Positions 1,072 through 44,990 of a stretch of 64,000 nucleotides of DNA are shown in pieces. Origin of the DNA: an uncultured cyanobacterium (GTDB lineage: Bacteria; Cyanobacteriota; Cyanobacteriia; Cyanobacteriales; Cyanobacteriaceae); the NCBI GenBank assembly GCA_963710605.1, contig CAVQBA010000005.1, positions 192,001-256,000 of the forward strand. Reading direction: 5' to 3'. The position numbers and the translations under genes were made by a program. Below the pieces are notes generated by a model. It worked only from the letters and a program-made list of their open reading frames with translations. It did not search any database and had not been told where the DNA came from. Within the stretch, counting starts at the first letter, position 1; every line of letters starts with the position of its first letter.

Positions 1072-1369
1072 TGTAGAGTGACAATAAAGTTGGTAACTTT
1101 CAACCTATTAAAGCCTTATTACTTCGTCAATAAAAATTGAAACTAAATAAATAAAGTTGGTAACTAAAGACTAACTAAGCTTTTTCTCTACAATTTTAAT
1201 GACAATAAAGTTAGTAACTTTTCTGAAAACTATATAGATGAATGTGTTTACAATATAATTTTTTAAATTAAATTATTAAAACTTTTGTTTAAGATCGCAA
1301 TCGTGCTACGCCTGCCGCTTTAAGCGATCGACAAATCTTTTTGTAATAGGATAATAAAGTTGTATAACT
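1072..1369 (+). repeat. Tn7 left end: TGT terminus plus spaced TnsB-binding sites
   Basis: AATAAAGTTGGTAACT at 1083-1098 and 1150-1165, AATAAAGTTAGTAACT at 1204-1219, degenerate copy at 1353-1369; reverse complement of the right-end repeats; 8-bp TGT terminus followed by GACAATAAAGT as in Tn7. Confidence 0.85.
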
Positions 1370-1883
1370 TAGGTAATACCTTATTTTATAATAATCATAT
1401 ACTAGTTATTTAATTAAAAATAAAATCTACTGTCCTAAGCTATCTTCAGTCTTGAAATGTTACATCATTTTCAATAAGATTCGATCGACTTCAGTCGCCG
1501 CTGCGCGATCGTGTAGTACCGTTCTACGCACAATCGCAAATGTGATTAATTGTCAAAATCGATCGAGTAGTAATACTAAGAAATTGAGGAAATGAGAATC
1601 TCTAAAGTTATCATCCGATTAAAAAACTGAGGGAAAATCTAGATTAGTACTACTAAGGCGTATTATTTTGAGAATATGAGAACTCAAAAAGATACACTTA
1701 TTAGTTAATTCATACGATCGCTATTAGTAATTTAATAACTTTGTCATGAAGAGTAAAAGTTATTATTTTTTTTATTTTTCCCTCCAGTGATTGTACTCCG
1801 TAATATCTAAGCTCCTCTTATTTTTAACTTGACGAAATAAATTTCTACAAGTGACAAATAATTTGCCACTTATGGAAATCGAT

Positions 1884-2543
1884 TTAGCAACCCATCGGTG
1901 AATGACAATCACCATAAAAAGGATCGATCGGTTTGACTGGATTGGGACGAGAATTATTTTGAGTTGATGTATTATTTTCAATCGGAATATTTCGATCGTT
2001 ACTCGGTTGCGAATTATTAGACATACCACCACTAATCCATCCATCTAAAACTAGACCCATAAGTAATAATTGTGCAGCTACTTGTTGTTGTCTGATTTGC
2101 TGTTGTTTTTCAATATAAGCTTGTTGTTCGCTTGGAGAAAGACTTTCAAAATAAGCTCTTCTTCTGACTGCTTCTTGAATTTCTTGTTCTTTTGCCGCCG
2201 CACGAGCTTGTGCAAGTTCTTCTTGTCTTCTTTTTCTTTCTTCTAAACGTATTTGACGTTGCTGTTCGGCTATTTCTCTTTTTTCTCGTTTTTCTTCACG
2301 TACTTTTTCTTGCTCAACTATGTCTAATACATCATCAACTCCCTCCTTTACATCATTAAATACATCCCAAAAACCAGCAGTCAATATATTGTCTGACGGT
2401 TGTGAGAGTAATAAATCAGCAGTATCGATCGTATTGGGTTCAATTTTATTTAGTCCATCTTGACTAGCGGATACAGTCGTAAAACTGCCTGAAACCAAAA
2501 TCAGACTGCTTGCAAGAGTACATATACTTTTATTTCTTTTCAT
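1884..2543 (-). CDS. Secreted coiled-coil hypothetical protein
   Basis: N-terminal signal-peptide-like segment (…TVSA|SQ), long E/Q/R-rich helix, C-terminal CHSPMGC. Confidence 0.65.
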   Translation of the reverse strand: MKRNKSICTLASSLILVSGSFTTVSASQDGLNKIEPNTIDTADLLLSQPSDNILTAGFWDVFNDVKEGVDDVLDIVEQEKVREEKREKREIAEQQRQIRLEERKRRQEELAQARAAAKEQEIQEAVRRRAYFESLSPSEQQAYIEKQQQIRQQQVAAQLLLMGLVLDGWISGGMSNNSQPSNDRNIPIENNTSTQNNSRPNPVKPIDPFYGDCHSPMGC

Positions 2544-2625
2544 AATTAATCTGTGTTTGTATTAACTGAGTTGTTTCGATTAATAACTAGAATAAATTAA
2601 TTATGAGGAATAATCATGTTGCTCG

Positions 2626-2634
2626 TGCGAACAA
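2626..2634 (-). promoter_or_regulatory. Cargo motif TTGTTCGCA, ~83 bp upstream of the 219-aa gene
   Basis: Minus strand reads ATTTAGTTGTTCGCA; CATAAT about 20 nt downstream. Confidence 0.6.
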
Positions 2635-2806: not shown

Positions 2807-3670
2807 TTAGTGAGTTAAACTAGAAAAATACTCAAACCATTGTTTTACATTAATTTTCGCTCCTGCGGCATTTTTATGACCACCACCACCATAGTGTTTA
2901 GCTACTTGCGATACATCAGCACCACCATTTTTACGACTACGAAGGTTAATCACGATCGTATCATCAATACAACTCCACATCACTACATATGGTGCTTGAG
3001 GAAATTTATCATACATAGCTTGACAAGTTTCTGAGACCATATGAGGGCTATTAATCATCGGTACTCGATCTGGTTGTTCTGGCAGATTAGCCCAATAAAC
3101 ATTTTTTAATTGATTTTTAACTTGATTTTTTCCTGCTCGAACAATAGTCTTACCTTGTTCGACTAAGTTTGAGACATATCGATCGTCATTTAATAAGTTT
3201 TGCCAAGTATCTAAATCAAAATCAACTAAATTTAATACTGCTTCGGTGAAAGGTTTTGTTTGTTCTATTTCCCATTTCCATAAATCTCGATCGTCAAACA
3301 TCTTTACTGACCAAGGTAAGGGAGATTCGGGGAAGAAGTAATTCCAAGTTAATACTGCTCCCGATTTGTTTAAGTTAAAGAAAGCTCCTGATAATCCCAT
3401 TAACGCCTCTTGGGCTGTTTTATGGTGATCGAGTATAATTACCTTTTGATGATCGTTTTGTAATTCTAAAATGATGTTTCGAGGATAACTGAAGTCTAGT
3501 AGATAGATAACACTGTTTTTCCCCATTTTTGGTACGGGAGATTGGTGATAACCTGCAATGTATTCTACTTTTGTATTGGGATGATGTTCTTGAAAAAATT
3601 TGTATGCGATGGTAGCTGAACAGAATCCATCTAGACAATTGCCATGATAGATAACATAAGTTTTAGTCAT
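2807..3670 (-). CDS. DHH/DHHA1-family phosphoesterase (Nrn-like)
   Basis: Motifs YHGNCLDG, LLDF, ILDHH, and GGGGHKNAAG (DHHA1). Confidence 0.9.
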   Translation of the reverse strand: MTKTYVIYHGNCLDGFCSATIAYKFFQEHHPNTKVEYIAGYHQSPVPKMGKNSVIYLLDFSYPRNIILELQNDHQKVIILDHHKTAQEALMGLSGAFFNLNKSGAVLTWNYFFPESPLPWSVKMFDDRDLWKWEIEQTKPFTEAVLNLVDFDLDTWQNLLNDDRYVSNLVEQGKTIVRAGKNQVKNQLKNVYWANLPEQPDRVPMINSPHMVSETCQAMYDKFPQAPYVVMWSCIDDTIVINLRSRKNGGADVSQVAKHYGGGGHKNAAGAKINVKQWFEYFSSLTH

Positions 3671-3825: not shown

Positions 3826-5421
3826 TTACCAAACTTGAATCGATCGAGCTGACATTGCGTTAGCGAAATTATTTCTCTGGGGGTGATTAACTCCAAAAAT
3901 AGTTACTACCTGATAAGCATCATCATCATCAGGATAATTAGATTTAATCCAAACGTAAGAAGGAATACCTAATTTACCTCCTACATCAGCGTTTCCTCTA
4001 TTAGTTTGATTATTAAATCCTTTAAAACAATCGCTACTATAAAGTAAGTTTAATCCTTCTCCTAAGACATCTTTTTTGTAACCTTCTCTATACCAATCGT
4101 CAACTTCACTAGGATATTTTAATTGAGTAGAAGGAATCAAAAATATTCTACTATTATCGTCGAAAACATCTTGATAACGATTTTGTTGATTTCCTAAACT
4201 ATGATTAGCTGGATTACCTTGAGGTTGAATAGCTCGAAAACAATCTAAAACATCTTGAATAAAAATTTGCCAGTCTGACTCTACACAAGGAAGAATAAAA
4301 TCGCTTAATTCCCAAAAGCATCCTCTTAGTCTTCTATTATTTAGATGTAAGGGGCGACGAGAACTTTTTGCAAATCCTCCTATATGAGATGCAAATTTCA
4401 ATAAAGATTCTATTAGCTCGAAATCTTTTTGGTTTTTTGCTTCTAATAAAATTTCACCTTGACAATAGTAAGGCTCTTTTCTTTTACTATCTCCTAAATC
4501 TTCTTCACTTAAAGTAATATCCAAACGAGTAGTACTTTCTTGGTTTAATTGACCAAATAATCGATTTTCTAAACGTTTACTTGTTTGTATATCATATAAG
4601 CCTAAAGCGATCGCTCTGAACCAGTAACGTAAAATACCTCTTAAAGCGATCGGGCGAAATTCCACATCGCCATTCCATTGGTTATCTTTATTCGGAGGAA
4701 ACGCACCATAAACACCTTGAGAATAAAATTGAAAATGATATTCACCAGAATAGGGTAAATTAGCTTTAGCGTTAGCTCGTCCGTAACCAGCATTTACTCT
4801 CGAGCCTATTCCAGCTTGTAACGCTTTTTTTAACCAATTTTTGACAGTTATTAAATCGGCAGATTGATTTTTACCTTTACTTGTCAACATTAAACCAATT
4901 AGAATTTCAGGTTTTTCCATTGACAGAAAAAAGTGAGGCACGGGGTCATATTTTACTCGATTGTTATTTTGCCATGTCCATTGAGGATTAACTATATCAG
5001 TACTCAAACAAGGTTCGGTGGGAAAAGCATCTAAAATTTGTACCGTACCAATACCCTCATCAATATCACCTAAAATTCTTTTTACTTCGGTTAAGCTAAT
5101 TTCTCCTTTTTTAGTATCTTTTTTAGCTTGTGCGAGGATAGCTCCTTTTAAACTGCTAGCTGGAAGATAAGGTACACCATAAACAGGATGAAATACAGGT
5201 AAAAGTAATTCTCGAAAGCCACGCATTCCCCCAACTCGAACACGCCAAGAAAATTCGATTTTGAGGCTTTCGGTAGCTAGTTTTTTTGTTCTTGCTGTTA
5301 ATTTACGATATATTTCATTACAAGTTTGTTCTGCATCTTCTACCGATTCTAAAATTGGGGATATTTGCCTTTCGGTCGTAAGTACTTTTGTATTGAGAGC
5401 TTGTAAAGGATTAATTATCAT
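3826..5421 (-). CDS. cmr6: Type III-B RAMP, Cmr6-Cmr1 fusion
   Basis: N-half GVPYLPASSLKGA...GIGSRVNAGYG (Cmr6-like); C-half EFRPIALRGILRYWFRA...GGFAKSSRR (Cmr1-like); last gene of the cmr operon. Confidence 0.85.
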   Translation of the reverse strand: MIINPLQALNTKVLTTERQISPILESVEDAEQTCNEIYRKLTARTKKLATESLKIEFSWRVRVGGMRGFRELLLPVFHPVYGVPYLPASSLKGAILAQAKKDTKKGEISLTEVKRILGDIDEGIGTVQILDAFPTEPCLSTDIVNPQWTWQNNNRVKYDPVPHFFLSMEKPEILIGLMLTSKGKNQSADLITVKNWLKKALQAGIGSRVNAGYGRANAKANLPYSGEYHFQFYSQGVYGAFPPNKDNQWNGDVEFRPIALRGILRYWFRAIALGLYDIQTSKRLENRLFGQLNQESTTRLDITLSEEDLGDSKRKEPYYCQGEILLEAKNQKDFELIESLLKFASHIGGFAKSSRRPLHLNNRRLRGCFWELSDFILPCVESDWQIFIQDVLDCFRAIQPQGNPANHSLGNQQNRYQDVFDDNSRIFLIPSTQLKYPSEVDDWYREGYKKDVLGEGLNLLYSSDCFKGFNNQTNRGNADVGGKLGIPSYVWIKSNYPDDDDAYQVVTIFGVNHPQRNNFANAMSARSIQVW

Positions 5422-5435: not shown

Positions 5436-5972
5436 CTAATCATTTTTTGGTTCGCCTAATACTGCTACTGCCCAAAAAGACCATTCTTTGGATAATTGAA
5501 TGGCAAGACGATTTAAACCTGTATATCTTCTTAAGGGTAAGTTAATTAAAGTAGATTCGTCATCAACATCAAAATTACTACCACTGAAACTTTTGAGTTT
5601 GATCAAAAACTGTTGATAAACATAACCTTTATATTTAGTATCGGAGGCAGTACCAATGAGGAATTTTTGGGCATCACCACTCAAACGATGAAGCCCCCAT
5701 GTAGAAATATAAGCAGTTAATCCTCTAATAAGGTTACAGGCTTTACTGTCATAACTATTTCCTCCTAATTCTCGATGGAGAATTGTTTTTAATTCAGTTA
5801 AACCTTTATAAGCTTCTTGGCTAAAAGAGCGAGAATCTAGTTTCATCGTAGTCAGTCGCTTTTGAGTAGGTTGTACATTAGATTGATTCATCGTAGATGA
5901 TTTACTAACGTTTGTTGTAGCTGGTACTGTTTTGTTTTGTTGCTTATATTTGTTTTTGCGTTGTTTACCCAT
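5436..5972 (-). CDS. cmr5: Type III-B small subunit (Cmr5/Cas11-like)
   Basis: Small helical protein between cmr4 and cmr6; LTAYISTWGLHRL segment. Confidence 0.65.
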   Translation of the reverse strand: MGKQRKNKYKQQNKTVPATTNVSKSSTMNQSNVQPTQKRLTTMKLDSRSFSQEAYKGLTELKTILHRELGGNSYDSKACNLIRGLTAYISTWGLHRLSGDAQKFLIGTASDTKYKGYVYQQFLIKLKSFSGSNFDVDDESTLINLPLRRYTGLNRLAIQLSKEWSFWAVAVLGEPKND

Positions 5973-6003: not shown

Positions 6004-11280
<5,277 letters not shown>

Positions 11281-11717: not shown

Positions 11718-13140
11718 CTCTGGTTTAACTACTGGAGAACAATTAATGGAAACTTAAACCACAAAATTGCTAGCATAAAACAAATGAACACTCTGGTTTA
11801 ACTACTGGAGAACAATTAATGGAAACATGTCGATAGAGATTTCATCTTTATCGTCGAAAATTGCTCTGGTTTAACTACTGGAGAACAATTAATGGAAACA
11901 TGCCGCCAGAAATTATATTTTGCCCGTAGAACTCAACCTCTGGTTTAACTACTGGAGAACAATTAATGGAAACATTTTCATACTCTTCAATTAATTTTTC
12001 TTGTATTTTTCTCTGGTTTAACTACTGGAGAACAATTAATGGAAACTCTCCTAGTAGGTTTTGTACCCCTTGGAAAAAAGCGTCTCTGGTTTAACTACTG
12101 GAGAACAATTAATGGAAACTTATGAAGCGTGTAGCGCTTTCATAAAATCTTCTAACTCTGGTTTAACTACTGGAGAACAATTAATGGAAACTTTTTTTGA
12201 GTAATTTCTTCTTTTTGTTCTTTTCTCTGGTTTAACTACTGGAGAACAATTAATGGAAACAAAAGATCGCCAACCTGAGGTGAAATTTCACTTCCTCTGG
12301 TTTAACTACTGGAGAACAATTAATGGAAACGGATATACGATTTCTCCGGCTTGAGCTACTTCAACACCAAACTCTGGTTTAACTACTGGAGAACAATTAA
12401 TGGAAACCTCCAGGTGATTCCTGTAACCTTGGGTGAGATCCTACTCTGGTTTAACTACTGGAGAACAATTAATGGAAACTACGATGACCCAGAACACTAG
12501 TAGTCGTTGGTGGGTACAATTCTCTGGTTTAACTACTGGAGAACAATTAATGGAAACTGGTTTGCAAATGAGCATTCAGTGAGACGCTTTACTCTGGTTT
12601 AACTACTGGAGAACAATTAATGGAAACTCCAGCTCTTCATTATCGTTAACTCGGCCAACTTGATTCTCTGGTTTAACTACTGGAGAACAATTAATGGAAA
12701 CTTCTATTAGAGGAACGAGAAGGGCGATTACTCTCCTCCTCTGGTTTAACTACTGGAGAACAATTAATGGAAACTTGCGTTCTTCTTCACAGAAGAGTTG
12801 TTCGAGTTCCCCTCTGGTTTAACTACTGGAGAACAATTAATGGAAACGTTGAATGCATTCTTTAAATCGTTTCCAAATTCTGCTAGGCTCTGGTTTAACG
12901 ATCGGAGAACAATTAATGGAAACGAGACTAAGCTGACAAAACTGTCAGCTTTCAAAAAATTACACTCTGGTTTAACGATCGGAGAACAATTAATGGAAAC
13001 GTTGAGACAAGTACGATCTCCTGTGTGACTGTTAGCTCTGGTTTAACGATCGGAGAACAAACAATTAATGGAAACGAAAAAAGAATCACTGGAGTTACAG
13101 CAATTGCTGTCTCTGGTTTAACGATCGGAGAACAATTAAT
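11718..13140 (+). CRISPR. Type III CRISPR array, 20 repeats and 19 spacers (33-42 bp)
   Basis: 36-bp repeat CTCTGGTTTAACTACTGGAGAACAATTAATGGAAAC (16 copies), then variant ...AACGATCGGAG... (4 copies: one with a 4-bp insertion, the last truncated); ATGGAAAC 3' handle; degenerate end distal to the leader. Confidence 0.98.
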
Positions 13141-13142
13141 AA

Positions 13143-13196
13143 AAGAGGATGAAATTTGCTATTTTTTACAGTGGCAGACTTCATTCTTTTTTTTTG
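13143..13196 (+). terminator. Probable intrinsic terminator after the array
   Basis: Imperfect stem GAGGATGAAATTTGC...GCAGACTTCATTCTT followed by a T-run. Confidence 0.5.
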
Positions 13197-13272
13197 TTGA
13201 CTGATATAGCAGAGAACGAGTTAGTTAAGACATAGTATAAGAACGAACGCTGTACCATCTAAGGATTTTACC

Positions 13273-13300
13273 TTTGCCCTTTGCCCTTTGCCCTTTGCCC
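13273..13300 (+). repeat. Cyanobacterial heptamer short tandem repeat (TTTGCCC)n
   Basis: Four tandem TTTGCCC units. Confidence 0.7.
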
Positions 13301-33710: not shown

Positions 33711-33855
33711 TTGATTTGAAATAAATTGTGAAAGATGTTTGTTGCGAAAGAAAAAATTAGACAGCAAAGATGATGCAGTAGTTGAAAAACAGCTACATAA
33801 ATAGATAGGAGCGAAGTACTCAGATCAGCACAGTGTTCGCTCTATATTTATATGA

Positions 33856-34098
33856 CTAAACTGTTATTAAAGGTTGGTAATCTAGCAACTCAAACTTCCA
33901 GTAAATAGGAAATACTACCTGCTGAGTATTTGGCGGTGTTTCTACATCCAAGCAAAGTACTTCAAAGCTAATGCCATTAGAAACGTATTCTAGTTCGCTG
34001 ATGACGTGCCAAACATCTGTTTCAGAGTGCCGAATAATATCTCCTTCGGTTAATTGGTCAGCACAAATTTGGACTACTTCTACTGTCTGTGTAATCAT
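33856..34098 (-). CDS. Small acidic beta-rich hypothetical protein
   Basis: 80-aa ORF divergent from the HTH gene and upstream of tnsD. Confidence 0.55.
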   Translation of the reverse strand: MITQTVEVVQICADQLTEGDIIRHSETDVWHVISELEYVSNGISFEVLCLDVETPPNTQQVVFPIYWKFELLDYQPLITV

Positions 34099-34367
34099 AG
34101 TAATAAGACCTTTTATTTTATTGGGTTTTGAAGAGAAGGCGAATCAATGCTGTCCAGGCGCGATCGCTTTTCTCTTCTAACTTTATGATAGCGTACAACG
34201 CTTATCTATAAACATTGTATACTATTTTTATAGTTGCCAAGTAAATAATTGTAGAGGGGTAAAATATCGATCGTATTGTTAGGTACGCAATTTATCTCAG
34301 GAATTGTCTGAATAAGAAGTAAAATAAGCGACAATATACTGGTTAACTTAATATCAAACCAAAAAAA

Positions 34368-34607
34368 GTGAGTGTAGTTAGATGGAAACTTCGTGAAGTA
34401 ATGGCACGCAGACGTATTACTAACAAAGCCTTAGCTATGGAATTAAACGTTCATCCTACCAGCATTTCAAGATTGAGAACTCAAGATCTTTTACCTGAAA
34501 TTGGCGGAGAAGTTTTAGGGCGAATAATTGATGGTATTAATAAGCTAACAGTTGAAGGCTATGGAGATTGTACTTTAGAAGAGTTAACAGAATTAGTTTT
34601 AAAATAA
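34368..34607 (+). CDS. Cro/C1-type (XRE) HTH transcriptional regulator
   Basis: VRWKLREVMARRRITNKALAMELNVHPTSISRLR. Confidence 0.85.
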   Translation: MSVVRWKLREVMARRRITNKALAMELNVHPTSISRLRTQDLLPEIGGEVLGRIIDGINKLTVEGYGDCTLEELTELVLK

Positions 34608-34636
34608 TGTATGAAATATGAATGAAGAAAATATAT

Positions 34637-34892
34637 GTTTACAACGCCTAACGACATTTAATTTAGTTACAGTTATTGCCCAACAGTGCCAAGCATAAAA
34701 ATTTGTCCAGTTCACAACGCCTAACGACATTTAATTTAGTTACAGTTATTGCCCAACAGTGCCAAGCATAAAAATTTGTCCAGTTCACAACGCCTAACGA
34801 CATTTAATCTAGTTGCAGTCTTGATGTAAATCGGCTGGTATATCAACGCCTTCGAGGTTCACAACGCCTAACGACATTTAATTTAGTTGCAG
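34637..34892 (-). CRISPR. CAST mini-array, 4 repeats and 3 spacers (two spacers identical)
   Basis: 36-bp repeat (plus strand) GTTCACAACGCCTAACGACATTTAATTTAGTT(G/A)CAG at 34637, 34710, 34783 and 34857; downstream of cas5; orientation inferred from the cas genes and the AT-rich leader at 34893-35159. Confidence 0.93.
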
Positions 34893-35159: not shown

Positions 35160-35789
35160 TTAGATCGCTTTTACAATTGTCCAAGCTGAATCTGGAGGAA
35201 TTGTTGAAGATCTCTTTTCTAGGGAATAACGTAGCCATCGAGTATTTTGTGAGCCTAGATAGTCAACCCAGTAAGGTAAAGATAAATCGCCATACTCATT
35301 TTGAACCAAATACTTTAATGTTAAATTACGATCGATCTCAGTTATCAAATCTACAGAATTTACCAAATCTCGGCTTTCTCCACAACATAAAGCACCAAAT
35401 CGACTAATTGATGCTGGATTAGCAAATGCTTCTGTAATGCGATCGCATAAACTAGGTTTAGCTCGATCTTCTCCTTTATCCACACAAACTATTAATTCAA
35501 TACCAGTTAGTATTTCCTGAAAATCTGGTCTAGTATTTTCTTTATGGTCTAGCTTTTTCTTTTTGAACCTTCTGATGGTTCTCAGAGTAATTGATTTAGC
35601 TGGTTCGGATAGTAGTGCGATCGCAATTTTTACACCACAATGTTCGTATCTGTCTGTTTCACCCACCAAAGATAGTAACATTCCATAAATAGTTGAAGGA
35701 GGTGGTACGGGATAAGTTTGCCGATATTCACGACTGCGAGAAGTAGGAAAAGAAGCAATGGGAACATCGACTCTGAGAATAATTGTCAT
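35160..35789 (-). CDS. cas5: Type I-B (Myxan/DevS-like) Cas5
   Basis: LRVDVPIASF, TYPVPPPSTIYGMLLSLVG, RFGALCCGES. Confidence 0.92.
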   Translation of the reverse strand: MTIILRVDVPIASFPTSRSREYRQTYPVPPPSTIYGMLLSLVGETDRYEHCGVKIAIALLSEPAKSITLRTIRRFKKKKLDHKENTRPDFQEILTGIELIVCVDKGEDRAKPSLCDRITEAFANPASISRFGALCCGESRDLVNSVDLITEIDRNLTLKYLVQNEYGDLSLPYWVDYLGSQNTRWLRYSLEKRSSTIPPDSAWTIVKAI

Positions 35790-36740
35790 CTATTCCCCTC
35801 TTTTATTACTTTCGATAGATAAATCTTGAGCGATCTTTTCTTTCAAAGCCTCTACTATTGCTTTTACTCCCGAACGTTTATTAACTTGTTCGTACTCGCT
35901 ACCTTGTAAATGTTCGGTGATTTCTCCTCCAATCCATAATTCGGAAGGATTGAGATCGCTACTTCTTATCTGTCTCAATAGCTTTGGTATAGAAATATCG
36001 CCTATTTCATTTTCCTCATAGCAGTATAAAAAACGTGGTGCAAAATCATTTGTCCAGCGTAAAACAATACTTTCTGGTGCAAAATCGAAGAGAAACCTAC
36101 CATGATTGCCTCCTACTCGATAGATGGAAACTATTGCATCCAATAAATCTAGAACTCTTGATTTGTCTTTGCAAGATTCTGGAGTAATGCCAAAGCCAAA
36201 TTGATATCTCGTACCGTGAAATTCTGTTCCATAGATCGAAGTACGGTCTTTTTCACCACTTTTAGAACTGAAGGTAACTTTACCGTCATAGGGAACAGTA
36301 GAGATGGCACGTGTAACGTCTAGTCTTCCCCTCCTATCTGTTACCGTACCTTTTGGCTTTTGTTTCTTTTTGCTTTTACCTTTAATTTGAGGTGTTGTTT
36401 GCTGTCGATCATCATCCTTAGTATCTTTTTTAGCACTTTCTGCTTCAAAAAAACCTAAAAGATCGTCGTCAATATAGTCAATAGCGTTAAAACTAGGCTC
36501 TTGCCAATCAGGATTTAGTTGGCTGGGTAAATCATCATTCCAAACACGATTGACGGGGATACCTGCTTTTTGCCAGTAATATCTAATTGCCCAACGTATC
36601 GCTTCAGATGACACTACAGTGTGAGTTTCTCCCTGCCAAAGTAGTTTTTGTAGGGTCGTAATATTACCTTGATTTTCCCCGCGATTATTGGCTGCCACGC
36701 CATAGAAAGTTAAAATATTACCATATAAGTGAAATGTCAT
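35790..36740 (-). CDS. cas7: Type I-B (DevR/Cst2-like) Cas7
   Basis: AANNRGENQGNITTLQK, VSSEAIRWAIR, YIDDDLLGF, VGGNHGRFLFDFAPES. Confidence 0.92.
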   Translation of the reverse strand: MTFHLYGNILTFYGVAANNRGENQGNITTLQKLLWQGETHTVVSSEAIRWAIRYYWQKAGIPVNRVWNDDLPSQLNPDWQEPSFNAIDYIDDDLLGFFEAESAKKDTKDDDRQQTTPQIKGKSKKKQKPKGTVTDRRGRLDVTRAISTVPYDGKVTFSSKSGEKDRTSIYGTEFHGTRYQFGFGITPESCKDKSRVLDLLDAIVSIYRVGGNHGRFLFDFAPESIVLRWTNDFAPRFLYCYEENEIGDISIPKLLRQIRSSDLNPSELWIGGEITEHLQGSEYEQVNKRSGVKAIVEALKEKIAQDLSIESNKRGE

Positions 36741-36742: not shown

Positions 36743-38389
36743 TTATTCTTCCTCCTCTAACAATTTTGCTTCTGTTGAAACTGAATCTTCATCTGCTTGT
36801 TTACGCTTTTGAGACTTATAGCTTACCAAAGATAATAAAGCTAAATCTCTGGCTAACTTCCAATTATCTGGTTTAGTAGTCAAAGGCATTAATTCTTCCC
36901 AATAGTCGGCAAGGATAGTGATATTTCCTGCTTTACTCCAAAAGTTAGCTGTCATAAAGTGACGAAAATCTTCAGAATTGAGACAACGAATCAAGCCAGA
37001 GCGTATGCGTTCGTTTTCACGCTCTATCTGAATATATTCTCCTTCTTTCCCTCTGCTATAGAGTTTGCCATATATTTTTAAAAGAGCTTCATGACAAGCT
37101 TTGACAAATAGTTTTTGTGCTTGCTCGTCCCATTTTGCATTTTTGACCATTTGATTTAATCCTTGTTTTTCGTAGCTAACAAACTTGAATAATTCTTTGT
37201 TTCTTACTGCATCAGTAAAGTTATGCCACCAAGGAAATCCTCTGGCTAGATTTTCGCTTATTAGTTCTCGGACAATACTTACAGCAATGAAATTTCCTTT
37301 TTCCCACTCTACAACTCTGTTAGGGAAATAACTATTACACAATTGATAGTTTTCTAATAATTTATCGTTTATCTCGACGACTTCAACATTTTTACGTATT
37401 TTCTGAAATCCCGTCCATTGAGTTTCGCCGAAAGTAATTATCTGAGAGCATTTAAAAGCGTTTGATTTAATGATACGTAAAGTAGCCTGTTGAGTAAGCA
37501 AACGCAAAGCAGCATCGCTATAGCCAGAAGCTAAGAATTTTTGGTAATCCCAATTATTTATTGTTTGTCTTTGTCTGGCGTATGATTCTAGATCGGTTAT
37601 TTCAGGAATTACTAAATAATATTGAGTTTTAGTACCGTGAAGATAGGATTTGGGTGCAATGAAGTAAAGACAAGCAACGGGAGCGTATAACAAGGCGATC
37701 GCTCTTTCAATAGTTTCTGTAAATTGGGTTTCTTTTTTATAAGCGTAATGTTTGATTGCTGCACCAGGGTACAGCCAACCTGTTATCCCTATTGTTTTTT
37801 GCTGTATATTGCCACCTTGCTTAACATCAAATAAAAACAAAAATCCAATTAGACTAAAATGAATAAAAATATAAAGTTTTAATTTAGTAAAAATAACCTT
37901 CGAGTTAAGTTTTTCGATCGGACATAGCTGTTCGGCATAGTTTTGATGAGCGTAAGACTTGGCTTTTTTGTAATTAATTGCAATTTGTAGATTATCTATG
38001 GTCAAAAATGCAGTAGCCTTACCAGTAGATTGGAAGAACTGATTATGTTGTAGAAAAGTATTTTTCATCCCAATATGAACAGCTAACTGACTTTCTTTAC
38101 TAAAAGATTGTAAACCTGTCAGAGAAATTAAACCGTCACTATTAACTTGGAATGATTTAGAGAATAACCATTCTAAGGCTTCATAATCGTTTCTCTGCCA
38201 ATAAAGACTGATCCTAGTTTTAGTTATAGTCCATTTAAAATTACCTGGGCGAGATTTTGGAGTAGGATAACGCTTTTCTAGAGCTTTTAAAGTCATATAT
38301 AAGCCAGCAACTCCCGCACGATGTAACATGGTCATACCAGGATCGCTCAAACTTATCTCTATTTTTGGTTTAACAGCTTTAGTAACCAT
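36743..38389 (-). CDS. cas8: Type I-B (Myxan-like) Cas8 large subunit
   Basis: DPGMTMLHRAGVAGLYMTL, TFLQHNQ, GWLYPGA, ALLYAPVAC; C-terminal Cas11-like region ending LALLSLVSY. Confidence 0.9.
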   Translation of the reverse strand: MVTKAVKPKIEISLSDPGMTMLHRAGVAGLYMTLKALEKRYPTPKSRPGNFKWTITKTRISLYWQRNDYEALEWLFSKSFQVNSDGLISLTGLQSFSKESQLAVHIGMKNTFLQHNQFFQSTGKATAFLTIDNLQIAINYKKAKSYAHQNYAEQLCPIEKLNSKVIFTKLKLYIFIHFSLIGFLFLFDVKQGGNIQQKTIGITGWLYPGAAIKHYAYKKETQFTETIERAIALLYAPVACLYFIAPKSYLHGTKTQYYLVIPEITDLESYARQRQTINNWDYQKFLASGYSDAALRLLTQQATLRIIKSNAFKCSQIITFGETQWTGFQKIRKNVEVVEINDKLLENYQLCNSYFPNRVVEWEKGNFIAVSIVRELISENLARGFPWWHNFTDAVRNKELFKFVSYEKQGLNQMVKNAKWDEQAQKLFVKACHEALLKIYGKLYSRGKEGEYIQIERENERIRSGLIRCLNSEDFRHFMTANFWSKAGNITILADYWEELMPLTTKPDNWKLARDLALLSLVSYKSQKRKQADEDSVSTEAKLLEEEE

Positions 38390-38401: not shown

Positions 38402-39049
38402 TTAAACAAATACCCCACAACCCATTTTTTGCTTGCCTCCTAAACCCTTTTCTTGAAGCACAATCGAATCAGTCTCGCTCAAATTATTTGCTTCAATTCC
38501 AAAACCAACTATAATTTGCTTTACTTTTAGAGTTTTGGGTTTAGTAGTACCATCTTTTTTCGAGATTAGTTTTAGACTGGCTCTAATGCCTAATGCCTCT
38601 ATTTGTCTTTTAGCGGCTTCGATAAATGTTTTTGGTTCTTCATATCCTCTAATTACTACTATATGCGATCGTAACCTCGATTTGGGTTGTAGAAAATTCA
38701 TTTCGGGAATCCCTAGCCTAATCTTTTGTTTGCCTATATTTAGAAACTTCCCACTAAAAGAATAAACGAAAGGCACTTTTTCCGATGGCAAGCGAATTAG
38801 TAGTTTTGAACGATCGGTTAAATCTAACTGGTTTCTATTGTTGACATCGAGCTTTCCTGAAATCGTTTTGATACTAACATCGTCCCAATCTTTAAGCTCC
38901 ATTAACCTATATTTTAATGCTGAGTATAATTGATATCCATGATCGATGGGTAAAGCTTGTCCTATTACGGGAAACGCTAATTGAATATAGGGATTTTGTA
39001 TAAGTTCGATGTCGTTATGTTGTTTTTCTGTGAGTAAAGAAATCGCCAT
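38402..39049 (-). CDS. cas6: Cas6 (Myxan/Cmx6 type)
   Basis: LPIDHGYQLYSAL and the Gly-rich C-terminus LQEKGLGGKQKMGCGVF. Confidence 0.92.
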   Translation of the reverse strand: MAISLLTEKQHNDIELIQNPYIQLAFPVIGQALPIDHGYQLYSALKYRLMELKDWDDVSIKTISGKLDVNNRNQLDLTDRSKLLIRLPSEKVPFVYSFSGKFLNIGKQKIRLGIPEMNFLQPKSRLRSHIVVIRGYEEPKTFIEAAKRQIEALGIRASLKLISKKDGTTKPKTLKVKQIIVGFGIEANNLSETDSIVLQEKGLGGKQKMGCGVFV

Positions 39050-39132: not shown

Positions 39133-40068
39133 TCAATCAAAAAGATTTCTTATTGAACCGCACAAAAACTTAATCAGCATAATATGAGTTATACGATCGA
39201 TAGTTTGAGCAATATCGCAGGAGAACAAACAATATTCTAAATAGGCTTCGAGTTTCTCCCAGATTTGTGGCTGTATTGTTAGCAAAAAGTCTTTACCATA
39301 AAATTCTATAAAAGCCTCTATCAATAGTTTTTCATGGTATTTAAACTTGGTGCGTGAATATTTAGTTACAAATCCATTTTCTATTAGTAGTAAGCTGTAT
39401 TTACTTCTCAACCAAGTCATTCCCTGAAACTCAACATAGTTTCGACTCAACCAATCGAGTTCTTGGTTTATGGATAGTACCAGTTGCATAAATTCTTGAG
39501 AATATAAATTATGGTGTGTTTTACATAGATCGACTTGACTAGCACCATAGTAATGAACTTGCTTTTTGTAGAATGAAATTTTGCTATCTAACAAGGGTAA
39601 TTTGTGCTTTAAACAGATTAACATTCCTGGAATTTGATGCTGACGATGCCAATAGACTTCACCATATAGCTGTTCATCCTCTACGCAACATTGAGGACAA
39701 AATTTCAGAACTCGATCGAATTCTTTATCTGGTATTTTCGCAGCTTGGGATATGGAGATATTGGACTTCGATCGAAGTAAATCTTTGAAGAAATATATTT
39801 CTATAGGTGTAAGAAAACTACGAAAAAAAGGGTAGAGAGTATTCTTTTTAATTAAACTTTCAACAGTCAGTTGTGAACCTTGAGGAAGTTGACCGATCAG
39901 AAAATTAAGATTATTGGGTAAAACTATTTTGTCTGACTGTAAATCAACCGTCTCAAATAATTCTTCATGGGTTTGCCGAAAACTTTTGTTACCACTACGA
40001 ATATGATATCTAGCTACTACACTATAAAGTAGTTCGTCAGGATAAGGATTAGGAAAAGAACCAAGCAT
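39133..40068 (-). CDS. tniQ: TniQ (short; Cascade-associated target selector)
   Basis: FPNPYPDELLYS, FCPQC...YWHRQHQ...CLKH; 311 aa; between tnsC and cas6. Confidence 0.9.
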   Translation of the reverse strand: MLGSFPNPYPDELLYSVVARYHIRSGNKSFRQTHEELFETVDLQSDKIVLPNNLNFLIGQLPQGSQLTVESLIKKNTLYPFFRSFLTPIEIYFFKDLLRSKSNISISQAAKIPDKEFDRVLKFCPQCCVEDEQLYGEVYWHRQHQIPGMLICLKHKLPLLDSKISFYKKQVHYYGASQVDLCKTHHNLYSQEFMQLVLSINQELDWLSRNYVEFQGMTWLRSKYSLLLIENGFVTKYSRTKFKYHEKLLIEAFIEFYGKDFLLTIQPQIWEKLEAYLEYCLFSCDIAQTIDRITHIMLIKFLCGSIRNLFD

Positions 40069-41753
40069 TAGTTAATATTAATGAACTCATCAATGGGATT
40101 TTTGACAAATCCGACTTCTTTTAAAGCATCATGTACTAAGATGCCGTCTTTTTGTGCTTTAGTCACAACTGACCTCAGATCGTTTTCTTGATATTTTAGT
40201 TCTAATTCAGTTTGTTTAGATTTTTTCTGATTACTATTTTTGACTTTAACAGAGGCAGTATCACCACCTTGCAAACTTAGAGCGTATGCTTTATTTACTA
40301 AAGCTTGAATGTTATGTTGCTTCTTCTTAGAGTCGAATACTTTTTCAGCACATTGTTTAGCAAGTAGAGCGTCAACATTCAATTCTTGAATTAATTTCAA
40401 TATTACATCATTTAAGATGGGCGACTGCTGCTCTTGTTGTTTGCGAGCCAAACGTCTAGCATCTTTTAGATCTTTTGATTCTAATTTGGAAACATATTTA
40501 TTCTGATATTCAACTGTACTTAGAGGGGCAATATCCTTATATCTTTTCATCCAATCAGTATCTCCAGATCTAATAGCATTAAGCATTGGTCTAACTAAAT
40601 ATAAACCTTCTTCTGCTACTTCGTGGATTAGATCTACTGTCATTATTTCATCTCCACCTTCTGCGATCGTTCGCCATTGAACCATTTTAAACAGCTTAAC
40701 TACCAAATCGATAATTCCTTGAGTTTCAAAGTATAAAGCTTTGTATATTTCATCAGATAGTTCTGTGTACTCTTTTGTCCACTGATATTTCCACATCCCC
40801 TCAACAAAAAACTTCCACTCTTCCCACTCATCTTCATCTTCTTGTTTCATACGATCCCAGAGAACGCCTCCTTCTCCTGTTCCCCTTCTGGCATTTCGGA
40901 AATTACCCTGAAGAATTGGATATGCTTCATTAGTACCGACTCGGATAACTGGAACGCCAATAATGTTATCCATTTTGACCAAAAAGTTGAGCAAGTCATC
41001 TTTACTTCTTCTGGCGTTGACTAAGTTTTGCATCTCATCAATTACAAGCATTCCCAGATGATGAGTATGAGCTAGTTGTGCTACTTGAGCCAACATATAA
41101 TCTTCTGAGTTACGAGTTGAGCCAAATTTTTTAAAATAATTTGTACCTATCAAGCGATCTATTTCTTTGAAAACATCAATACACAAACCTTTTAATGAAC
41201 CTGCGTGAGGGCAATCAACTTTAATCCAAACAATCTGGAATGTATTATGCTCTGGATGAGCGATAACTTGAGGATAAAGATCTAAAATATTTTTAAGATT
41301 GGTCGTCTTTCCCATCCCTGAGGGACCAATAAAAGTAAACCCAGAAGCAGAAGTTGGTACATCTACATAATTTTCGAGGATTTTACCACCTTTATTTTGA
41401 ATCGCTTGATAAATTTGATTAGCTCGACGAGCATATTGGGGTTTGATGATATTCCGAGCTAAGTAACCCTGCATTAATAAGACACTTATAGCTTGATGTA
41501 ATTGCGTAGTTTTGTTGAGGGGATTGAAATACCTAGATAATCTTTCAACACAATGGGTTCTTAAATGAGGCTTCAAAAACTTTTCTTCAGGAGCAAAGTT
41601 AGGCATTACTATTACAGATTCCAAAAATTCCTCTTCGGTCATCAAGTAAGGTAATGCTTGAATCATTGGATTGTTATTATATTCAGGCAGTTTATGGTCG
41701 CGATATATCGCAACAGTTGCTTCTACGCCATTGGGAATGTCAATTGTGTTCAT
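40068..41753 (-). CDS. tnsC: TnsC AAA+ ATPase
   Basis: YNNNPMIQALP, GPSGMGKTT, DCPHAGSLKGLC, LVIDEMQNL, RNARR. Confidence 0.95.
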   Translation of the reverse strand: MNTIDIPNGVEATVAIYRDHKLPEYNNNPMIQALPYLMTEEEFLESVIVMPNFAPEEKFLKPHLRTHCVERLSRYFNPLNKTTQLHQAISVLLMQGYLARNIIKPQYARRANQIYQAIQNKGGKILENYVDVPTSASGFTFIGPSGMGKTTNLKNILDLYPQVIAHPEHNTFQIVWIKVDCPHAGSLKGLCIDVFKEIDRLIGTNYFKKFGSTRNSEDYMLAQVAQLAHTHHLGMLVIDEMQNLVNARRSKDDLLNFLVKMDNIIGVPVIRVGTNEAYPILQGNFRNARRGTGEGGVLWDRMKQEDEDEWEEWKFFVEGMWKYQWTKEYTELSDEIYKALYFETQGIIDLVVKLFKMVQWRTIAEGGDEIMTVDLIHEVAEEGLYLVRPMLNAIRSGDTDWMKRYKDIAPLSTVEYQNKYVSKLESKDLKDARRLARKQQEQQSPILNDVILKLIQELNVDALLAKQCAEKVFDSKKKQHNIQALVNKAYALSLQGGDTASVKVKNSNQKKSKQTELELKYQENDLRSVVTKAQKDGILVHDALKEVGFVKNPIDEFININ

Positions 41754-41764: not shown

Positions 41765-44011
41765 TTAGTCTTCAATAGATTTTCTCAATCTGTTTCTTTT
41801 TAATTTTTCTAATTTTTTGCTTTTGAAGGATTTAGCTTTCTGTTTGGGTCGATCGGGTTCAGTTTTGTTTGATGTAGTTTTCTGTTTAGATTCAGTCGTC
41901 TCTTCTATGGGAGTAATAGAACTAGGCGATTTATCTTTACTTAATTCAAAAGCCTCTTTTTCTCTACGCTTCTCCTTTTCAAAGGTACGGTTATTTCTAA
42001 TTCCTTTAACTTTCTTACTATTGCTTATAGTTTTATCTAAAACGGCATCTGTTGAAGCTGTTGCTTGCTCGACGATATTTTCAAATTCTGCCATTAGATC
42101 GACTTTGGTTTGTGTTTCTTTACCTTTGTATTTTTGCTTTTGCAGTTGCTCATAAGCCAATAAACATTCAATCTCTTCCCAAGTTTTGCCCACATATCTA
42201 TCTTCAAAATCAATAATCGAACATTTTTCGTAGTCTTTTCCATCAGAAGAACGAATATAAAGGTATTCTGGTTTTCTCGGATCGTATGATATATTTAAGT
42301 ATTTTTCATCTTTACTAAAAGATCGACTTCTAGCTCTTTCAAACCACTGCTCTGTTTTTGCTTTTTCACAGGTATAGTAAAGCTTTTTAAATTTAATACC
42401 TTTAGCTGTAATAGTTGCTCGTCCCAAAGGCATTAAGTTGAGTTTGACGATATCTTCAGGAAATGTTTTTAATCTTCCCGAACGCTTCTCTATTCCCCAT
42501 TGCCATAAATTTTTCGGTTTCGGTACAACATCATCTATAACCATATCAGTGTCCCGCTGATAATTATCAAGATAATGATTATTGTTGTGTTCTAGTATCA
42601 AATAAATAATTGCTTTGGTAAACTCGTCTAAACTTAATTTACTATCAAGACGATAATCTTTACCTCCTCTTTGAGTAAAATCTACATCTACATAACCAGG
42701 AACGAATGGTTTAACTTTACCGTGCATGGTTTTAAAATGCCTTTCCACAATACCCTTTTGATCTCCTCTATATGGTGCTGCATTTTCAATACGTATTCCC
42801 AAATTGTTAATGGAAGTTTCTACATTTTTTCCTGCTAATTCACCACGATCGCCTAAGATGACTTCTGGTACATGATGAACTTGCCATTGTTCCTCTGTAA
42901 TTTCAATACCGTATTCCGCACAGTATTTAACTTTGTCAGTAGCTGCATTAACTAGAGCCATCATCATTCCCAGCCATGAAGGTCCTTCTAAACCAACATA
43001 GACACCTGTAATCATTCGGCTAAATACATCAATAACAAGATACACAACTGGTCTGCCAATTATCCAGTTACGGTTATATTTAGAAACTAAATAAACATCA
43101 GCTATTGTGGCATCAATTTGATAGCGAGAACCAGGACCAATCGTTTCTTGTTTAGACGTTCGGGTAATAGCCCTATACTCTAAAGCGAAGGCTCTGCTTC
43201 CCCTTCTAGAGCTAATAGTTTTCTTAATATCTTTTTTATACTCCTTATCGTACCAATAGCGAAACTGTCTTATTGTCGGTCGTCTGCTTGGTGGAATTAA
43301 TACCGACTTTCTAACTCCGCGATCGTCATAGACTATTTCCTCGCTGTAATAATCTTTGAGCATCAATTCATAAGCAGTCGTCAAAAAGTTACCTTTTCGA
43401 TTATTGTAAAATTTGGAGATAGCAATTCTAAAAATTTTGAGATCTTCCTCATTTATATTTATTCCTTCACCTATTTCTGCAACTTTTTTGTACTTTCTTG
43501 GTCGCCCTCGCTTGACACTATTACTAGCTTTTCTAGTTTTACCTTTACCACCTGAATTGGAATAGTCGGGAATCAAGGAATTTTTAGTTTTTCCTCTTTG
43601 CCAATATTTCCTAAGATAATCATAGATAGTTTTTTTGGCAATTTTGTCTGTAGATTTGGCGATCGCTTCATTAATCAAAGAACCTCTTAGCGATCGATCG
43701 TATATTTCTGGTTCTTGCTCTACTATCGAGGCGATAATTTTCCAAGTTTTATCTCTTATTTCTATTTCTATCTCAGATAAATTATCTTCCGTAACTATTC
43801 TCAACCAAGGATCTGACTTTAATTTTATAGCTGTTTCCTCAGAAATTGCTTCTTCAATTTCACTCATTCTTTTTGCGTAAGGTACACCTTTATTAGTATG
43901 AATATCAAAGACAAAAGCAAGGATATAGTTTTCGTCTATCCAAACTATTCTCTCTACTTTTGTGGATTCTGGATCATTCAACCATTCAATTAAATCATTA
44001 ACATATAGCAT
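41765..44011 (-). CDS. tnsB: TnsB DDE transposase
   Basis: GPGSRYQIDAT, VIDVFSRMI, GDRGE, KGIVERHF. Confidence 0.95.
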   Translation of the reverse strand: MLYVNDLIEWLNDPESTKVERIVWIDENYILAFVFDIHTNKGVPYAKRMSEIEEAISEETAIKLKSDPWLRIVTEDNLSEIEIEIRDKTWKIIASIVEQEPEIYDRSLRGSLINEAIAKSTDKIAKKTIYDYLRKYWQRGKTKNSLIPDYSNSGGKGKTRKASNSVKRGRPRKYKKVAEIGEGININEEDLKIFRIAISKFYNNRKGNFLTTAYELMLKDYYSEEIVYDDRGVRKSVLIPPSRRPTIRQFRYWYDKEYKKDIKKTISSRRGSRAFALEYRAITRTSKQETIGPGSRYQIDATIADVYLVSKYNRNWIIGRPVVYLVIDVFSRMITGVYVGLEGPSWLGMMMALVNAATDKVKYCAEYGIEITEEQWQVHHVPEVILGDRGELAGKNVETSINNLGIRIENAAPYRGDQKGIVERHFKTMHGKVKPFVPGYVDVDFTQRGGKDYRLDSKLSLDEFTKAIIYLILEHNNNHYLDNYQRDTDMVIDDVVPKPKNLWQWGIEKRSGRLKTFPEDIVKLNLMPLGRATITAKGIKFKKLYYTCEKAKTEQWFERARSRSFSKDEKYLNISYDPRKPEYLYIRSSDGKDYEKCSIIDFEDRYVGKTWEEIECLLAYEQLQKQKYKGKETQTKVDLMAEFENIVEQATASTDAVLDKTISNSKKVKGIRNNRTFEKEKRREKEAFELSKDKSPSSITPIEETTESKQKTTSNKTEPDRPKQKAKSFKSKKLEKLKRNRLRKSIED

Positions 44012-44034
44012 TGGAAACCTTAAATATTATTTAT

Positions 44035-44865
44035 TTATATAATTGCTTTAATGATATTTACCGCAGGATGAGCAGCGATTTTTGCTTGAAACATATCAAC
44101 AACAATTTCTTTTCTCGAGACCAAATGTTTAAACAGAGACAAACAAGTTCCAATTTCTAAATTCATATCCTTATCTAATGCTGTTGTAATAGCACTAATT
44201 TTTGATTTGTTACTACTCAACCTTTCTTTGAGAATGTTGCTCAGATAATAACAGTTTTCATTGTTTTGCTCCTCTGACAATTTCCAATGATAATCAGAAT
44301 GAATCCATTGAATATTAGATGCGAAAGTTGTTGATATTTCTTGTTCGGTAACGATTGCCCAATCAATATTGTGTTTTTGCCAATAGCGTCTCTCTAATTC
44401 TAATTTTTCGATCGTTCTTTTCTTGCCAAGCTCTTTAGTAGTTTTAAATGTACGAGCAATTTGAACGGATTTGTTATCCTGTTCGACTGTCAACATAAAA
44501 TCGGTGGTCAACACGTAAGGAGTATTATTTTTCCTGTTTACTGGATATTTAATTTCCATCTCTTTAGCAATTTCCATTGCCAAATCCAGATCTAGTAATG
44601 GATACTGCTCTCTAATGTCTTGAACTTCCTTACTCCATTCAAATATATAGAAAAGCCTTGATTCCCAATCTGACATTAGATGATGTGGGCGATCGCTTTT
44701 CCATCCAGGCGCTCGCGAAGCTCTTCCTACAGAAGGAAAATCTTGAATAGTTATCCAAGGCTTGTAGTCTTTGCCTCGACCTTTACCCCGTCCTTCTTTT
44801 ACATATCGCTCAAACTTAGCTTGAGTCCAATCGTATCTGCTTCTAGCCATTAGAAAACTGCACAA
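44035..44865 (-). CDS. tnsA: TnsA endonuclease
   Basis: EGRGKGRGKDYKPW, HHLMSDWE, DIREQYPL, TTDF, EKLELERRYW. Confidence 0.95.
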   Translation of the reverse strand: MCSFLMARSRYDWTQAKFERYVKEGRGKGRGKDYKPWITIQDFPSVGRASRAPGWKSDRPHHLMSDWESRLFYIFEWSKEVQDIREQYPLLDLDLAMEIAKEMEIKYPVNRKNNTPYVLTTDFMLTVEQDNKSVQIARTFKTTKELGKKRTIEKLELERRYWQKHNIDWAIVTEQEISTTFASNIQWIHSDYHWKLSEEQNNENCYYLSNILKERLSSNKSKISAITTALDKDMNLEIGTCLSLFKHLVSRKEIVVDMFQAKIAAHPAVNIIKAII

Positions 44866-44893
44866 TATAGAATTACTATAATTATACAGCTAT

Positions 44894-44990
44894 AGTTACC
44901 AACTTTATTGTAATTTTGCTCTAAGTTACCAACTTTATTGTAAAGTTACCAACTTTATTGTAAAGTTACCAACTTTATTGTAATTTTACA
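44894..44990 (-). repeat. Tn7 right end: four TnsB sites plus TGT terminus
   Basis: AGTTACCAACTTTATTGTA at 44894, 44924, 44944 and 44964, ending ...ATTTTACA at 44990. Confidence 0.93.

Follow-up and report, generated by a model that had tools for sequence, protein, structure and literature searches.

CRISPR-associated transposons (CASTs) are usually described as having traded immunity for mobility. For those of type I-B1, Saito et al. 2021 is reportedly the founding paper. AvCAST of Anabaena variabilis ATCC 29413, a member of this type, has separate tnsA, tnsB and tnsC genes, a small TniQ gene beside cas6-cas8-cas7-cas5, a short array and a separate TnsD, and it is inserted downstream of glmS, as laid out in the accessible text of two descriptions of the family (PMC9881144; PMC13251919). 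The part of the survey by Benler et al. (2021; PMC8649781) consulted here counts 2 of 6,549 Tn7-like transposons with type III (Cas10) cargo, both of them from Proteobacteria. In this study, we have explored a stretch of 64,000 nucleotides (hereafter the window) from an uncultured cyanobacterium, positions 192,001 to 256,000 of contig CAVQBA010000005.1 (C5 below) in assembly GCA_963710605.1. We consider it likely that bases 1072-44990 of the window are one type I-B1 CAST with a complete type III-B CRISPR-Cas system between its cognate ends. By its position the III-B system is real cargo, and our investigations concern the ends that enclose it, the genes on both sides of the partnership and the history of the site.

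The element measures 43,919 bp and has TGT and ACA termini at its two extremes. To delimit it, we searched the 3.93-Mb assembly for end motifs, using a 19-mer, an 18-mer, a 15-mer and a relaxed core motif as TnsB-site queries. The original prediction had noticed four copies of a putative TnsB site beside glmS, and these are confirmed as exact: AGTTACCAACTTTATTGTA occurs on the plus strand at 44894, 44924, 44944 and 44964 (span 44894-44982). Inverted, on the minus strand, it recurs at 1080-1098 (one mismatch), 1147-1165 (three) and 1201-1219 (two), so that seven matches are observed where 0.04 are expected by chance, and none of 100 shuffles got to seven. In Tn7 an 8-bp tip is followed by a TnsB site, and both ends of the element are in register with this layout. 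The left terminus, with the TGT that had been predicted, starts at 1072 as TGTAGAGT followed by GACAATAAAGTTGGTAACT; the right terminus, ending at 44990, reads TGTAAAAT and then TACAATAAAGTTGGTAACT once reverse-complemented. The sites are spaced at the left end (1072-1228, plus strand; sites at +9, +76 and +130) and packed at the right end (44894-44990, plus strand; steps of 20, 20 and 30 bp, ACA at 44988-44990), and the ends therefore have the Tn7 arrangement of TGT...ACA termini with several TnsB sites, spaced on the left and packed on the right. The four right-end sites are mutually identical, and 18 nt of the terminal left site match exactly. From the ACA terminus at 44990 it is 24 nt to the glmS stop codon (45015-45017), a distance of 24-26 nt in five relatives; glmS itself, the attachment-site gene (45015-46889, minus strand, profile match), lies outside the element.

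The left boundary is fixed within about 2 nt, because two comparisons independently agree on it. A related CAST in genome G043 (TnsB 74% identical), the left end of which is on a separate contig (G043:C262), has left-end sites at +9, +76 and +131, as compared to +9, +76 and +130 here, and nucleotide similarity to that end starts exactly at 1072 and stops at 1228. From the other side, homology of the left flank to genome G018 ends at window position 1069. A nearer left end was sought in the window, in 90 kb of contig C5 and in the whole genome, and none lies between 1.4 and 44.8 kb, in agreement with the original prediction; the 15-mer at up to three mismatches gave two isolated matches only. 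With the 18-mer at up to two mismatches, seven of the eight genome-wide matches fall at the two ends, and clusters of the relaxed core motif occur at the two ends only, plus one unrelated cluster on contig C4. Inside the element no tns-gene matches were found besides the CAST's own tns operon and tnsD.

One detail of the left end had to be revised. The inverted sites had been predicted to run from 1083 to 1369; the three at 1080-1219 stand, while the fourth (1351-1369) is different in kind. It is part of a terminus-like sequence on the plus strand at 1342-1370, made of TGTAATAG (1342-1349) and GATAATAAAGTTGTATAAC, about 270 bp inside the left end, and it is weaker, agreeing with the consensus at 14 of 20 positions. 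The same 1342-1370 stretch matches the left end of the G013 element at 25 of 29 positions and the right end of the G002 element at 27 of 31, and it looks like the end of the different Tn7-like family to which these two belong. A weaker counterpart is present at +251 in G043, which is without III-B, so the motif is not tied to the III-B cargo; in our view it is either a distal TnsB site or what remains of an old end, and the III-B module is not bounded by it. We also considered a nested element bounded by 1342-1370 and rejected it: the motif has no partner, being its own only match in the window and in the genome, and in G013, which has the same type of end and the closest III-B, the two are found on different contigs (element at C278:300-16860).

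Gene content identifies the right part of the element as a canonical type I-B1 CAST at glmS. Starting from the right end, tnsA (44035-44865; Pfam TnsA N and C domains in a 276-aa open reading frame, ORF), tnsB (41765-44011; Mu-transposase C domain, a 748-aa ORF that matches the Tn7 TnsB structure 7pik at E 4e-125) and tnsC (40068-41753; AAA_22/TniB domains, a 561-aa ORF) are separate genes without any fusion. Two TniQ-family proteins are encoded, as in other I-B1 CASTs: a small TniQ of 311 aa beside the cas genes (39133-40068; PF06527, E 3e-24) and a large TnsD of 653 aa apart from them (31806-33767; TniQ and TnsD domains, PF15978 at E 1e-106, Tn7 TnsD structure 8glu at E 6e-32). Between the two lie cas6 (38402-39049), cas8 (36743-38389), cas7 (35790-36740) and cas5 (35160-35789), all profile matches of the type I-B/MYXAN kind, with Cas8 also matching the I-B Cas8 of PDB 8fcj at E 5e-72. 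An array of four repeats and three spacers follows (34637-34892, minus strand, by repeat detection), which completes the minimal cas6-cas8-cas7-cas5 set with short array that characterizes type I-B1. The nine core genes all lie on the minus strand, each as a full-length open frame. Models of Cas1, Cas2, Cas3 and Cas4 matched none of the 32 ORFs of at least 80 aa scanned inside the element. Two of the three CAST spacers (34673-34709 and 34746-34782) are identical, from which we deduce that a 73-bp repeat-spacer unit was duplicated; none of the spacers matched PLSDB plasmids or 107 collected loci. Between the array and tnsD is an 80-aa ORF (33856-34098) without family match, which may encode a regulator; the DNA around it is 72% conserved over 33857-34818 in a related CAST (L045).

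The cmr operon, the 19-spacer array and the CARF-HEPN, WYL and DHH genes, which had been placed between the two ends, are all located there. The cmr genes are on the minus strand. The product of cmr2/cas10 (8296-11280; PF12469, PF22335, TIGR02577 at E 9e-51) has its GGDD cyclase motif at residue 790, and an HD dipeptide is absent from its first 150 residues. It is accompanied by cmr3 (6867-8060; PF09700, E 2.7e-42), cmr4 (6004-6885; TIGR02580, E 2e-38) and a gene for a 531-aa RAMP protein (3826-5421) in which Cmr6 (TIGR01898, residues 77-215) and Cmr1 (TIGR01894, residues 249-311) are fused, both over their cut-offs. Sequence profile searches gave no family for the 178-aa protein encoded at 5436-5972, the candidate small subunit Cmr5. 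Its AlphaFold model (pLDDT 82.5) was compared with the PDB by Foldseek and the first 12 matches listed are all Cmr5 chains or Cmr complexes (probability 1.00, E 0.01-0.06, target TM 0.56-0.69), so that we assign it as Cmr5 by predicted fold only. With a Cas10 palm/cyclase, the Cmr3, Cmr4, Cmr6 and Cmr1 RAMPs, this predicted Cmr5 and an associated array, the module has what defines type III-B. The array (11718-13146, plus strand) has 20 repeats, each 36 nt long, and 19 spacers, which measure 33-42 nt, and it begins 437 bp from the start of cmr2, on the opposite strand; because its last four repeats are degenerate, the leader should be at the 11.7-kb side. Beyond the array are a CARF-HEPN effector of the Csx1/Csm6-like kind (13803-15533, plus strand; PADLOC PDLC01808, E 3e-144 over the full length), with an R-x4-H motif at residue 499, and a 737-aa protein with a WYL/WCX C-terminus (16399-18612, plus strand, profile match), a homologue of which, 39% identical, follows the cmr and CARF-HEPN genes in G013. 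On the other side of the operon, a putative NrN-like DHH/DHHA1 phosphodiesterase is encoded at 2807-3670 (minus strand; Pfam DHH E 1.5e-6, DHHA1 E 6.5e-7, both just above their respective cut-offs). Compared with the element's own genome, the III-B spacers gave only chance matches of at most 24 nt.

Profile scans of the element's ORFs found neither cas6 nor cas1-cas2 belonging to the III-B module. Two Pfam Cas6 models found a single cas6 in the assembly, which is 85% complete by marker genes, and this is the CAST's own; cas1 was found on contig C1 only. A sole cas6 is one reason to think of a functional coupling of the two systems, in which the III-B array would supply guides to the CAST Cascade and the CAST Cas6 would process the III-B CRISPR RNAs (crRNAs). 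Other reasons come from a study of which the consulted part reports that III-B systems are found together with I-B and type V CASTs and that heterologous arrays can be used by CASTs if the repeat structure fits (PMC11300857). Here, the two repeats differ in fold. In the cargo III-B repeat, nt 1-20 form a hairpin at the 5' side and the remaining 16 nt are single-stranded, whereas the CAST repeat has its hairpin at nt 15-30 and is of another class; the sequences differ too (15/36 positions in direct comparison), and the I-B CAST of A. variabilis rejected structurally divergent repeats, according to the same portion of that study (PMC11300857).

The host genome provides a further comparison, as it has a second III-B locus (G000:C1:294300-306600, L038), 32-37% identical to the cargo III-B and composed of cmr2-6/1, a short Csm6-like CARF protein, cas1, cas2, an array of about 35 repeats and a WYL/WCX gene. 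This locus is also without cas6, its repeat folds like the cargo repeat, and the first five and last five bases are common to both repeats; alignment of the cargo array and this host array gave no convincing conserved block for a common leader. A third array, with a different repeat, was noted at C1:180.5 kb near a split cas1. That a host locus with the same repeat layout also does without its own cas6 fits the maturation route described for the III-Bv system CRISPR3 of Synechocystis, the repeat of which is matured by RNase E without Cas6, with a 13/14-nt handle, in the accessible text of that work (PMC12464536). The cargo module has the two features of III-Bv, namely no cas6 in the locus and a repeat made of a 5' stem-loop and a single-stranded 3' half. 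Since it has no cas6 and its repeat is laid out as in the Synechocystis III-Bv, the RNase E route is the expected one, and our repeat analysis indicates that the cargo crRNAs are probably matured by the host RNase E and not by the CAST Cas6. Based on this, we regard a coupling through shared Cas6 and shared guides as very improbable.

Several observations weigh against the proposal of one CAST with III-B cargo, and many of them concern the left flank. The 5-bp target-site duplication (TSD) is absent, the left flank reading GAAAG and the right flank ACATA; as the elements of G043, G002 and G013 are likewise without one, we give its absence little weight and consider that it speaks to the history of the element and not to its family. 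The left flank itself is a 2.1-kb piece of an ABC-transporter cassette; it begins within a truncated gene and stops between two paralogues, only one of which is present here. In G018 and G012 this flank continues into the second paralogue and not into glmS, and by such comparison the left flank is not the ancestral neighbour of glmS. Furthermore, about 350 bp of a tnsD gene are found outside the element, 2.1 kb from its left end, at G000:C5:190580-190929 (1.1-1.4 kb left of the window start; L031:16580-16929). This fragment has 90-92% DNA identity to the intact tnsD at 32215-32689, on the same strand, and abuts the last 35 codons of a truncated gene; beyond it follow a DUF433/DUF5615 toxin-antitoxin pair, a PhoD-like gene and an EcoR124_C type I restriction fragment. 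The fragment is probably what remains of a second, closely related CAST, and because of it we suppose that at least one more closely related copy was once here and that the locus was rearranged.

The relatives tell a similar story of the site. In G001, of the same genus, what is left beside glmS (83% identical) is one collapsed right-end site and a stretch of tnsA, about 100 bp long and 95% identical to the window; past this relic right end, the DNA is in synteny with contig C4 of the present genome, another point against the simple form of our proposal. The empty glmS site that the original prediction hoped to see in related strains was found in none of the five inspected (G001, G018, G012, G015 and G013): all have something Tn7-like there, in four of them recognisable TnsB sites with ACA 24-26 nt from the glmS stop codon and in G015 a possible terminus only. 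Also to be counted on this side is that the genome, in an assembly 85% complete by marker genes, has no second copy of the element. From these comparisons, the glmS site has been used repeatedly and the left-terminus junction was remade, and one may speculate that this happened by recombination of two copies or by an adjacent deletion made by the transposase. An RNA-guided origin of this junction was considered and set aside, no CAST spacer matching the genome beyond its own array.

Such a site invites the explanation of a composite island, in which Tn7-like generations were stacked at glmS and the III-B system came from an older element or from flanking DNA, being enclosed only after deletion or recombination, without ever having been captured as such by the present CAST. 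In addition to the missing TSD, the rearrangement of the left flank relative to G001, G018 and G012 and the heavy use of the site (Tn7-like sites at glmS in four of five relatives, with the possible terminus in G015), this explanation draws on the 90-92% identical tnsD fragment outside the left end, after which the toxin-antitoxin pair and the restriction fragment are typical cargo, and, within the element, on the terminus-like sequence of another Tn7-like family at 1342-1370 and on insertion sequence (IS) fragments and a 435-bp inverted duplication in the cargo. It is opposed by the lack of any extra tns match or second end cluster inside the element, by an outer left end that bears the TnsB sites of the right end with conserved spacing, and by the counterpart of the inner motif at a similar offset in G043, which lacks III-B. 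We therefore hold a composite origin to be possible, though rather doubtful; even if the history was composite, the module is now between cognate ends.

Comparison across genomes informs on where the module came from. Using a cut-off of E<=1e-50, Cmr2 matches are present in 78 of 301 genomes of the order, and the best of them reach 55-62% identity in full-length comparison, or 67-74% for two G013 fragments. In the five genomes that are of the same genus or have the nearest CASTs, no true homologue of Cmr2 from this clade is present. Among the 25 genomes with the best Cmr2 matches, eight have any TniQ match, and a general link of this III-B clade to glmS or Tn7 was rejected, since Cmr2 and glmS are on one contig in G062 only; the same genome is alone in this respect among the 23 that have both genes. 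In G062, which belongs to another family, the region C1:4298-31200 includes an I-B1 CAST at glmS (TnsB 56% identical), and the order is CAST, glmS, a 2-kb gap, cmr2-3-4-5-6/1, CARF-HEPN and array, so that its III-B (Cmr2 53% and CARF-HEPN 34% identical; repeat ending in AATTAATGGAAAC) is outside the transposon, upstream of glmS on the promoter side. A like module of cmr, CARF-HEPN and WYL genes is present in G013, on a different contig from the glmS element. The metagenome Cmr2 loci are similar in this respect, 0 of 26 having Tn7 or I-B cas genes in the available flank. From the CAST side, 16 other genomes encode a TnsC at least 56% identical, three of which also have a Cmr2 match, none of them inside the CAST as far as contigs show; the contigs of most related CASTs end within the element. 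The genes next to the left end in G043 are unrelated to those next to the left end in the window, which together with the absence of a Cmr2 of this clade from those five genomes indicates that the cargo is variable, as is expected of cargo.

These comparisons suggest that the III-B module once stood on its own and then entered this one CAST lineage. It had been proposed to look for other III-B loci bounded by the same ends, and none was found, the homologous modules lying outside transposons wherever their context could be seen; that no second carrier of the same module turned up among these elements and genomes also has to be set against our proposal. On the other hand, no transposon-free relative was found with the III-B system at this position, as the original prediction required. 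Nor did the III-B spacers reveal a protospacer in phages, plasmids or the 107 collected loci, which is another point against our proposal. Of the public sequencing runs, the best DNA run shares 12% of sampled words, and no RNA run lists the sequence. As for the CAST itself, TnsC is 84-93% identical in genus g40 of another family (f35) and 58% identical in the CAST of G002, the one related CAST TnsC that the 301 genomes yielded from the element's own family, a distribution which suggests recent horizontal spread of this CAST lineage.

The cargo as a whole occupies about 30 kb between tnsD and the left end, with III-B as its largest module. Next to the left end, a 219-aa ORF (1884-2543, minus strand) has, by our reading of the sequence, a signal peptide, a charged coiled-coil stretch and one hydrophobic segment, and it gave no family match and no Atlas match. 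The region 19100-31476 contains, according to profile scans, other cargo including orphan ORFs: an IS4 fragment (21365-21742), a VapE-like gene (22854-23735), a DUF4407 gene (23941-25272), a CFI-box-CTERM gene (26570-27640) and an IS1634 fragment (29210-29461). The inverted duplication mentioned above links 26329-26762 and 29857-30281, which are 80% identical. GC content is flat (0.29-0.38) and uninformative on origin. Outside the element, the adjacent ORFs 48253-48948 and 49049-49384 both match LptC (profile positions 2-117 and 75-164) and may represent a split or duplicated lptC.

Short dispersed repeats are found between the III-B and other cargo genes, at 13200-13800, 15550-16370 and 20780-20990, and none in the CAST core. 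They are 60-220 bp long and 75-98% identical, with dozens of copies across all large contigs, and they look like miniature inverted-repeat transposable elements (MITEs). Given that MITE-like repeats found throughout the host are in the cargo, the cargo would have been resident in this lineage for long, which is a further point against our proposal. An explanation that starts from here is that the element is a fossil, immobile, and that III-B is a fixed chromosomal defence locus in a glmS island, cargo only in the historical sense. The single genomic copy and the missing TSD are compatible with it, as are the MITE-like host repeats, the state of G001, where only the collapsed right end and about 100 bp of tnsA are left, and the lack of any close relative of the cargo in the genomes and metagenome loci searched. 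The condition of the element argues otherwise: its nine core genes are all full-length open frames, the four right-end sites do not differ among themselves, 18 nt of the terminal left site match exactly, and the TnsC identity of 84-93% to proteins from f35 suggests recent horizontal spread. Thus, we view a fossil element as conceivable and rather doubtful, and we return to our preferred reading, that of a single CAST with III-B between its ends.

If this reading is correct, the element inserted right-end-first 24 nt downstream of glmS, and, from what is known of the family, its core would combine TnsD-directed homing to glmS with TniQ-Cascade-guided insertion elsewhere. The III-B module would be transposed with it as one unit, however it was captured. 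In a host, crRNA-guided binding of foreign transcripts would lead to cleavage of the target RNA by Cmr4, while the CARF-HEPN RNase would be activated by a cyclic oligoadenylate signal made by Cas10, with the DHH enzyme as a possible off-switch of the signal. New III-B spacers, if any, would come from the cas1-cas2 of the host III-B locus on the other contig. The original prediction of one element with two CRISPR systems is therefore borne out as regards position, III-B being enclosed by one pair of CAST ends, and the joint mobility it had also claimed is what we infer. It is improbable, though attractive, that the two are more than neighbours, the CAST being the vehicle of a host-dependent, Cas6-less III-Bv immunity module. 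The appeal of this idea is that, with RNase E alone needed, the module would work on arrival in any cyanobacterium; the III-B Cas1-Cas2 of the recipient may then extend the cargo array, and the transposon would carry a heritable, updatable phage record between hosts. In a bolder form, the CAST Cascade would be loadable from the 19-spacer array, and the remembered phages or plasmids would become landing pads.

Placed beside the systems described so far, the element resembles AvCAST in all that the family description lists for the core, the addition being the complete III-B in its cargo. It is well established that Tn7-like elements carry defence cargo, CRISPR-Cas systems included, and type III cargo on them is rare, not unprecedented, so that the advance is one of example and not of principle. 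Full-text literature searches and the consulted portions of CAST papers yielded no description of a CAST that encloses a type III system between its ends. The carriers counted by Benler et al. (2021) are alike in that a Tn7-like element mobilises a cas10-bearing type III cargo; they are proteobacterial and, in the consulted part of the survey, not said to be CASTs, unlike the present element, which is cyanobacterial and itself RNA-guided. A Geminocystis Tn7-like element related to I-B, described in the same part of that survey (PMC8649781), is also cyanobacterial and also has more CRISPR-Cas than a minimal guide module. Its extras are the adaptation genes of its own system (cas1-cas4, cas2), whereas here they are unrelated type III effectors without adaptation genes.

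The two remaining comparisons concern the III-B system. CRISPR3 of Synechocystis sp. PCC 6803 sits on the plasmid pSYSA, and the system described here in a transposon. The two are alike in having Cmr without associated Cas6 and, in the accessible text on CRISPR3 (PMC12464536), in a repeat with a 5' stem-loop (nt 2-18 in CRISPR3, nt 1-20 here) and a single-stranded 3' half; the likeness is one of described repeat layout, and RNase E processing would be a shared property by analogy. The I-F CAST of Vibrio cholerae HE-45 is alike in that a CAST and a III-B system are present in one genome (Hu et al., 2024), and the consulted portion of that study shows cross-use of crRNAs experimentally (PMC11300857). 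In HE-45, as far as the accessible text of the sources goes, III-B is in a prophage (PMC6360697) and its repeat is I-F-like; here it is inside the CAST, with a repeat structurally unlike that of the CAST.

In the light of these comparisons, the element can serve as a test case for the horizontal spread of complete CRISPR-Cas systems, for whether or not the Cas6-independent III-Bv is especially portable among cyanobacteria, and for crRNA exchange between the guide machinery of a transposon and a co-travelling array, so far shown for separate loci only. At 44 kb, with machinery that looks intact, it is also a natural example of very large cargo for an I-B1 CAST. What sets it apart from AvCAST and the other systems above is the likely union, in one element, of a disarmed CRISPR system as guide and an armed, unrelated one as payload.

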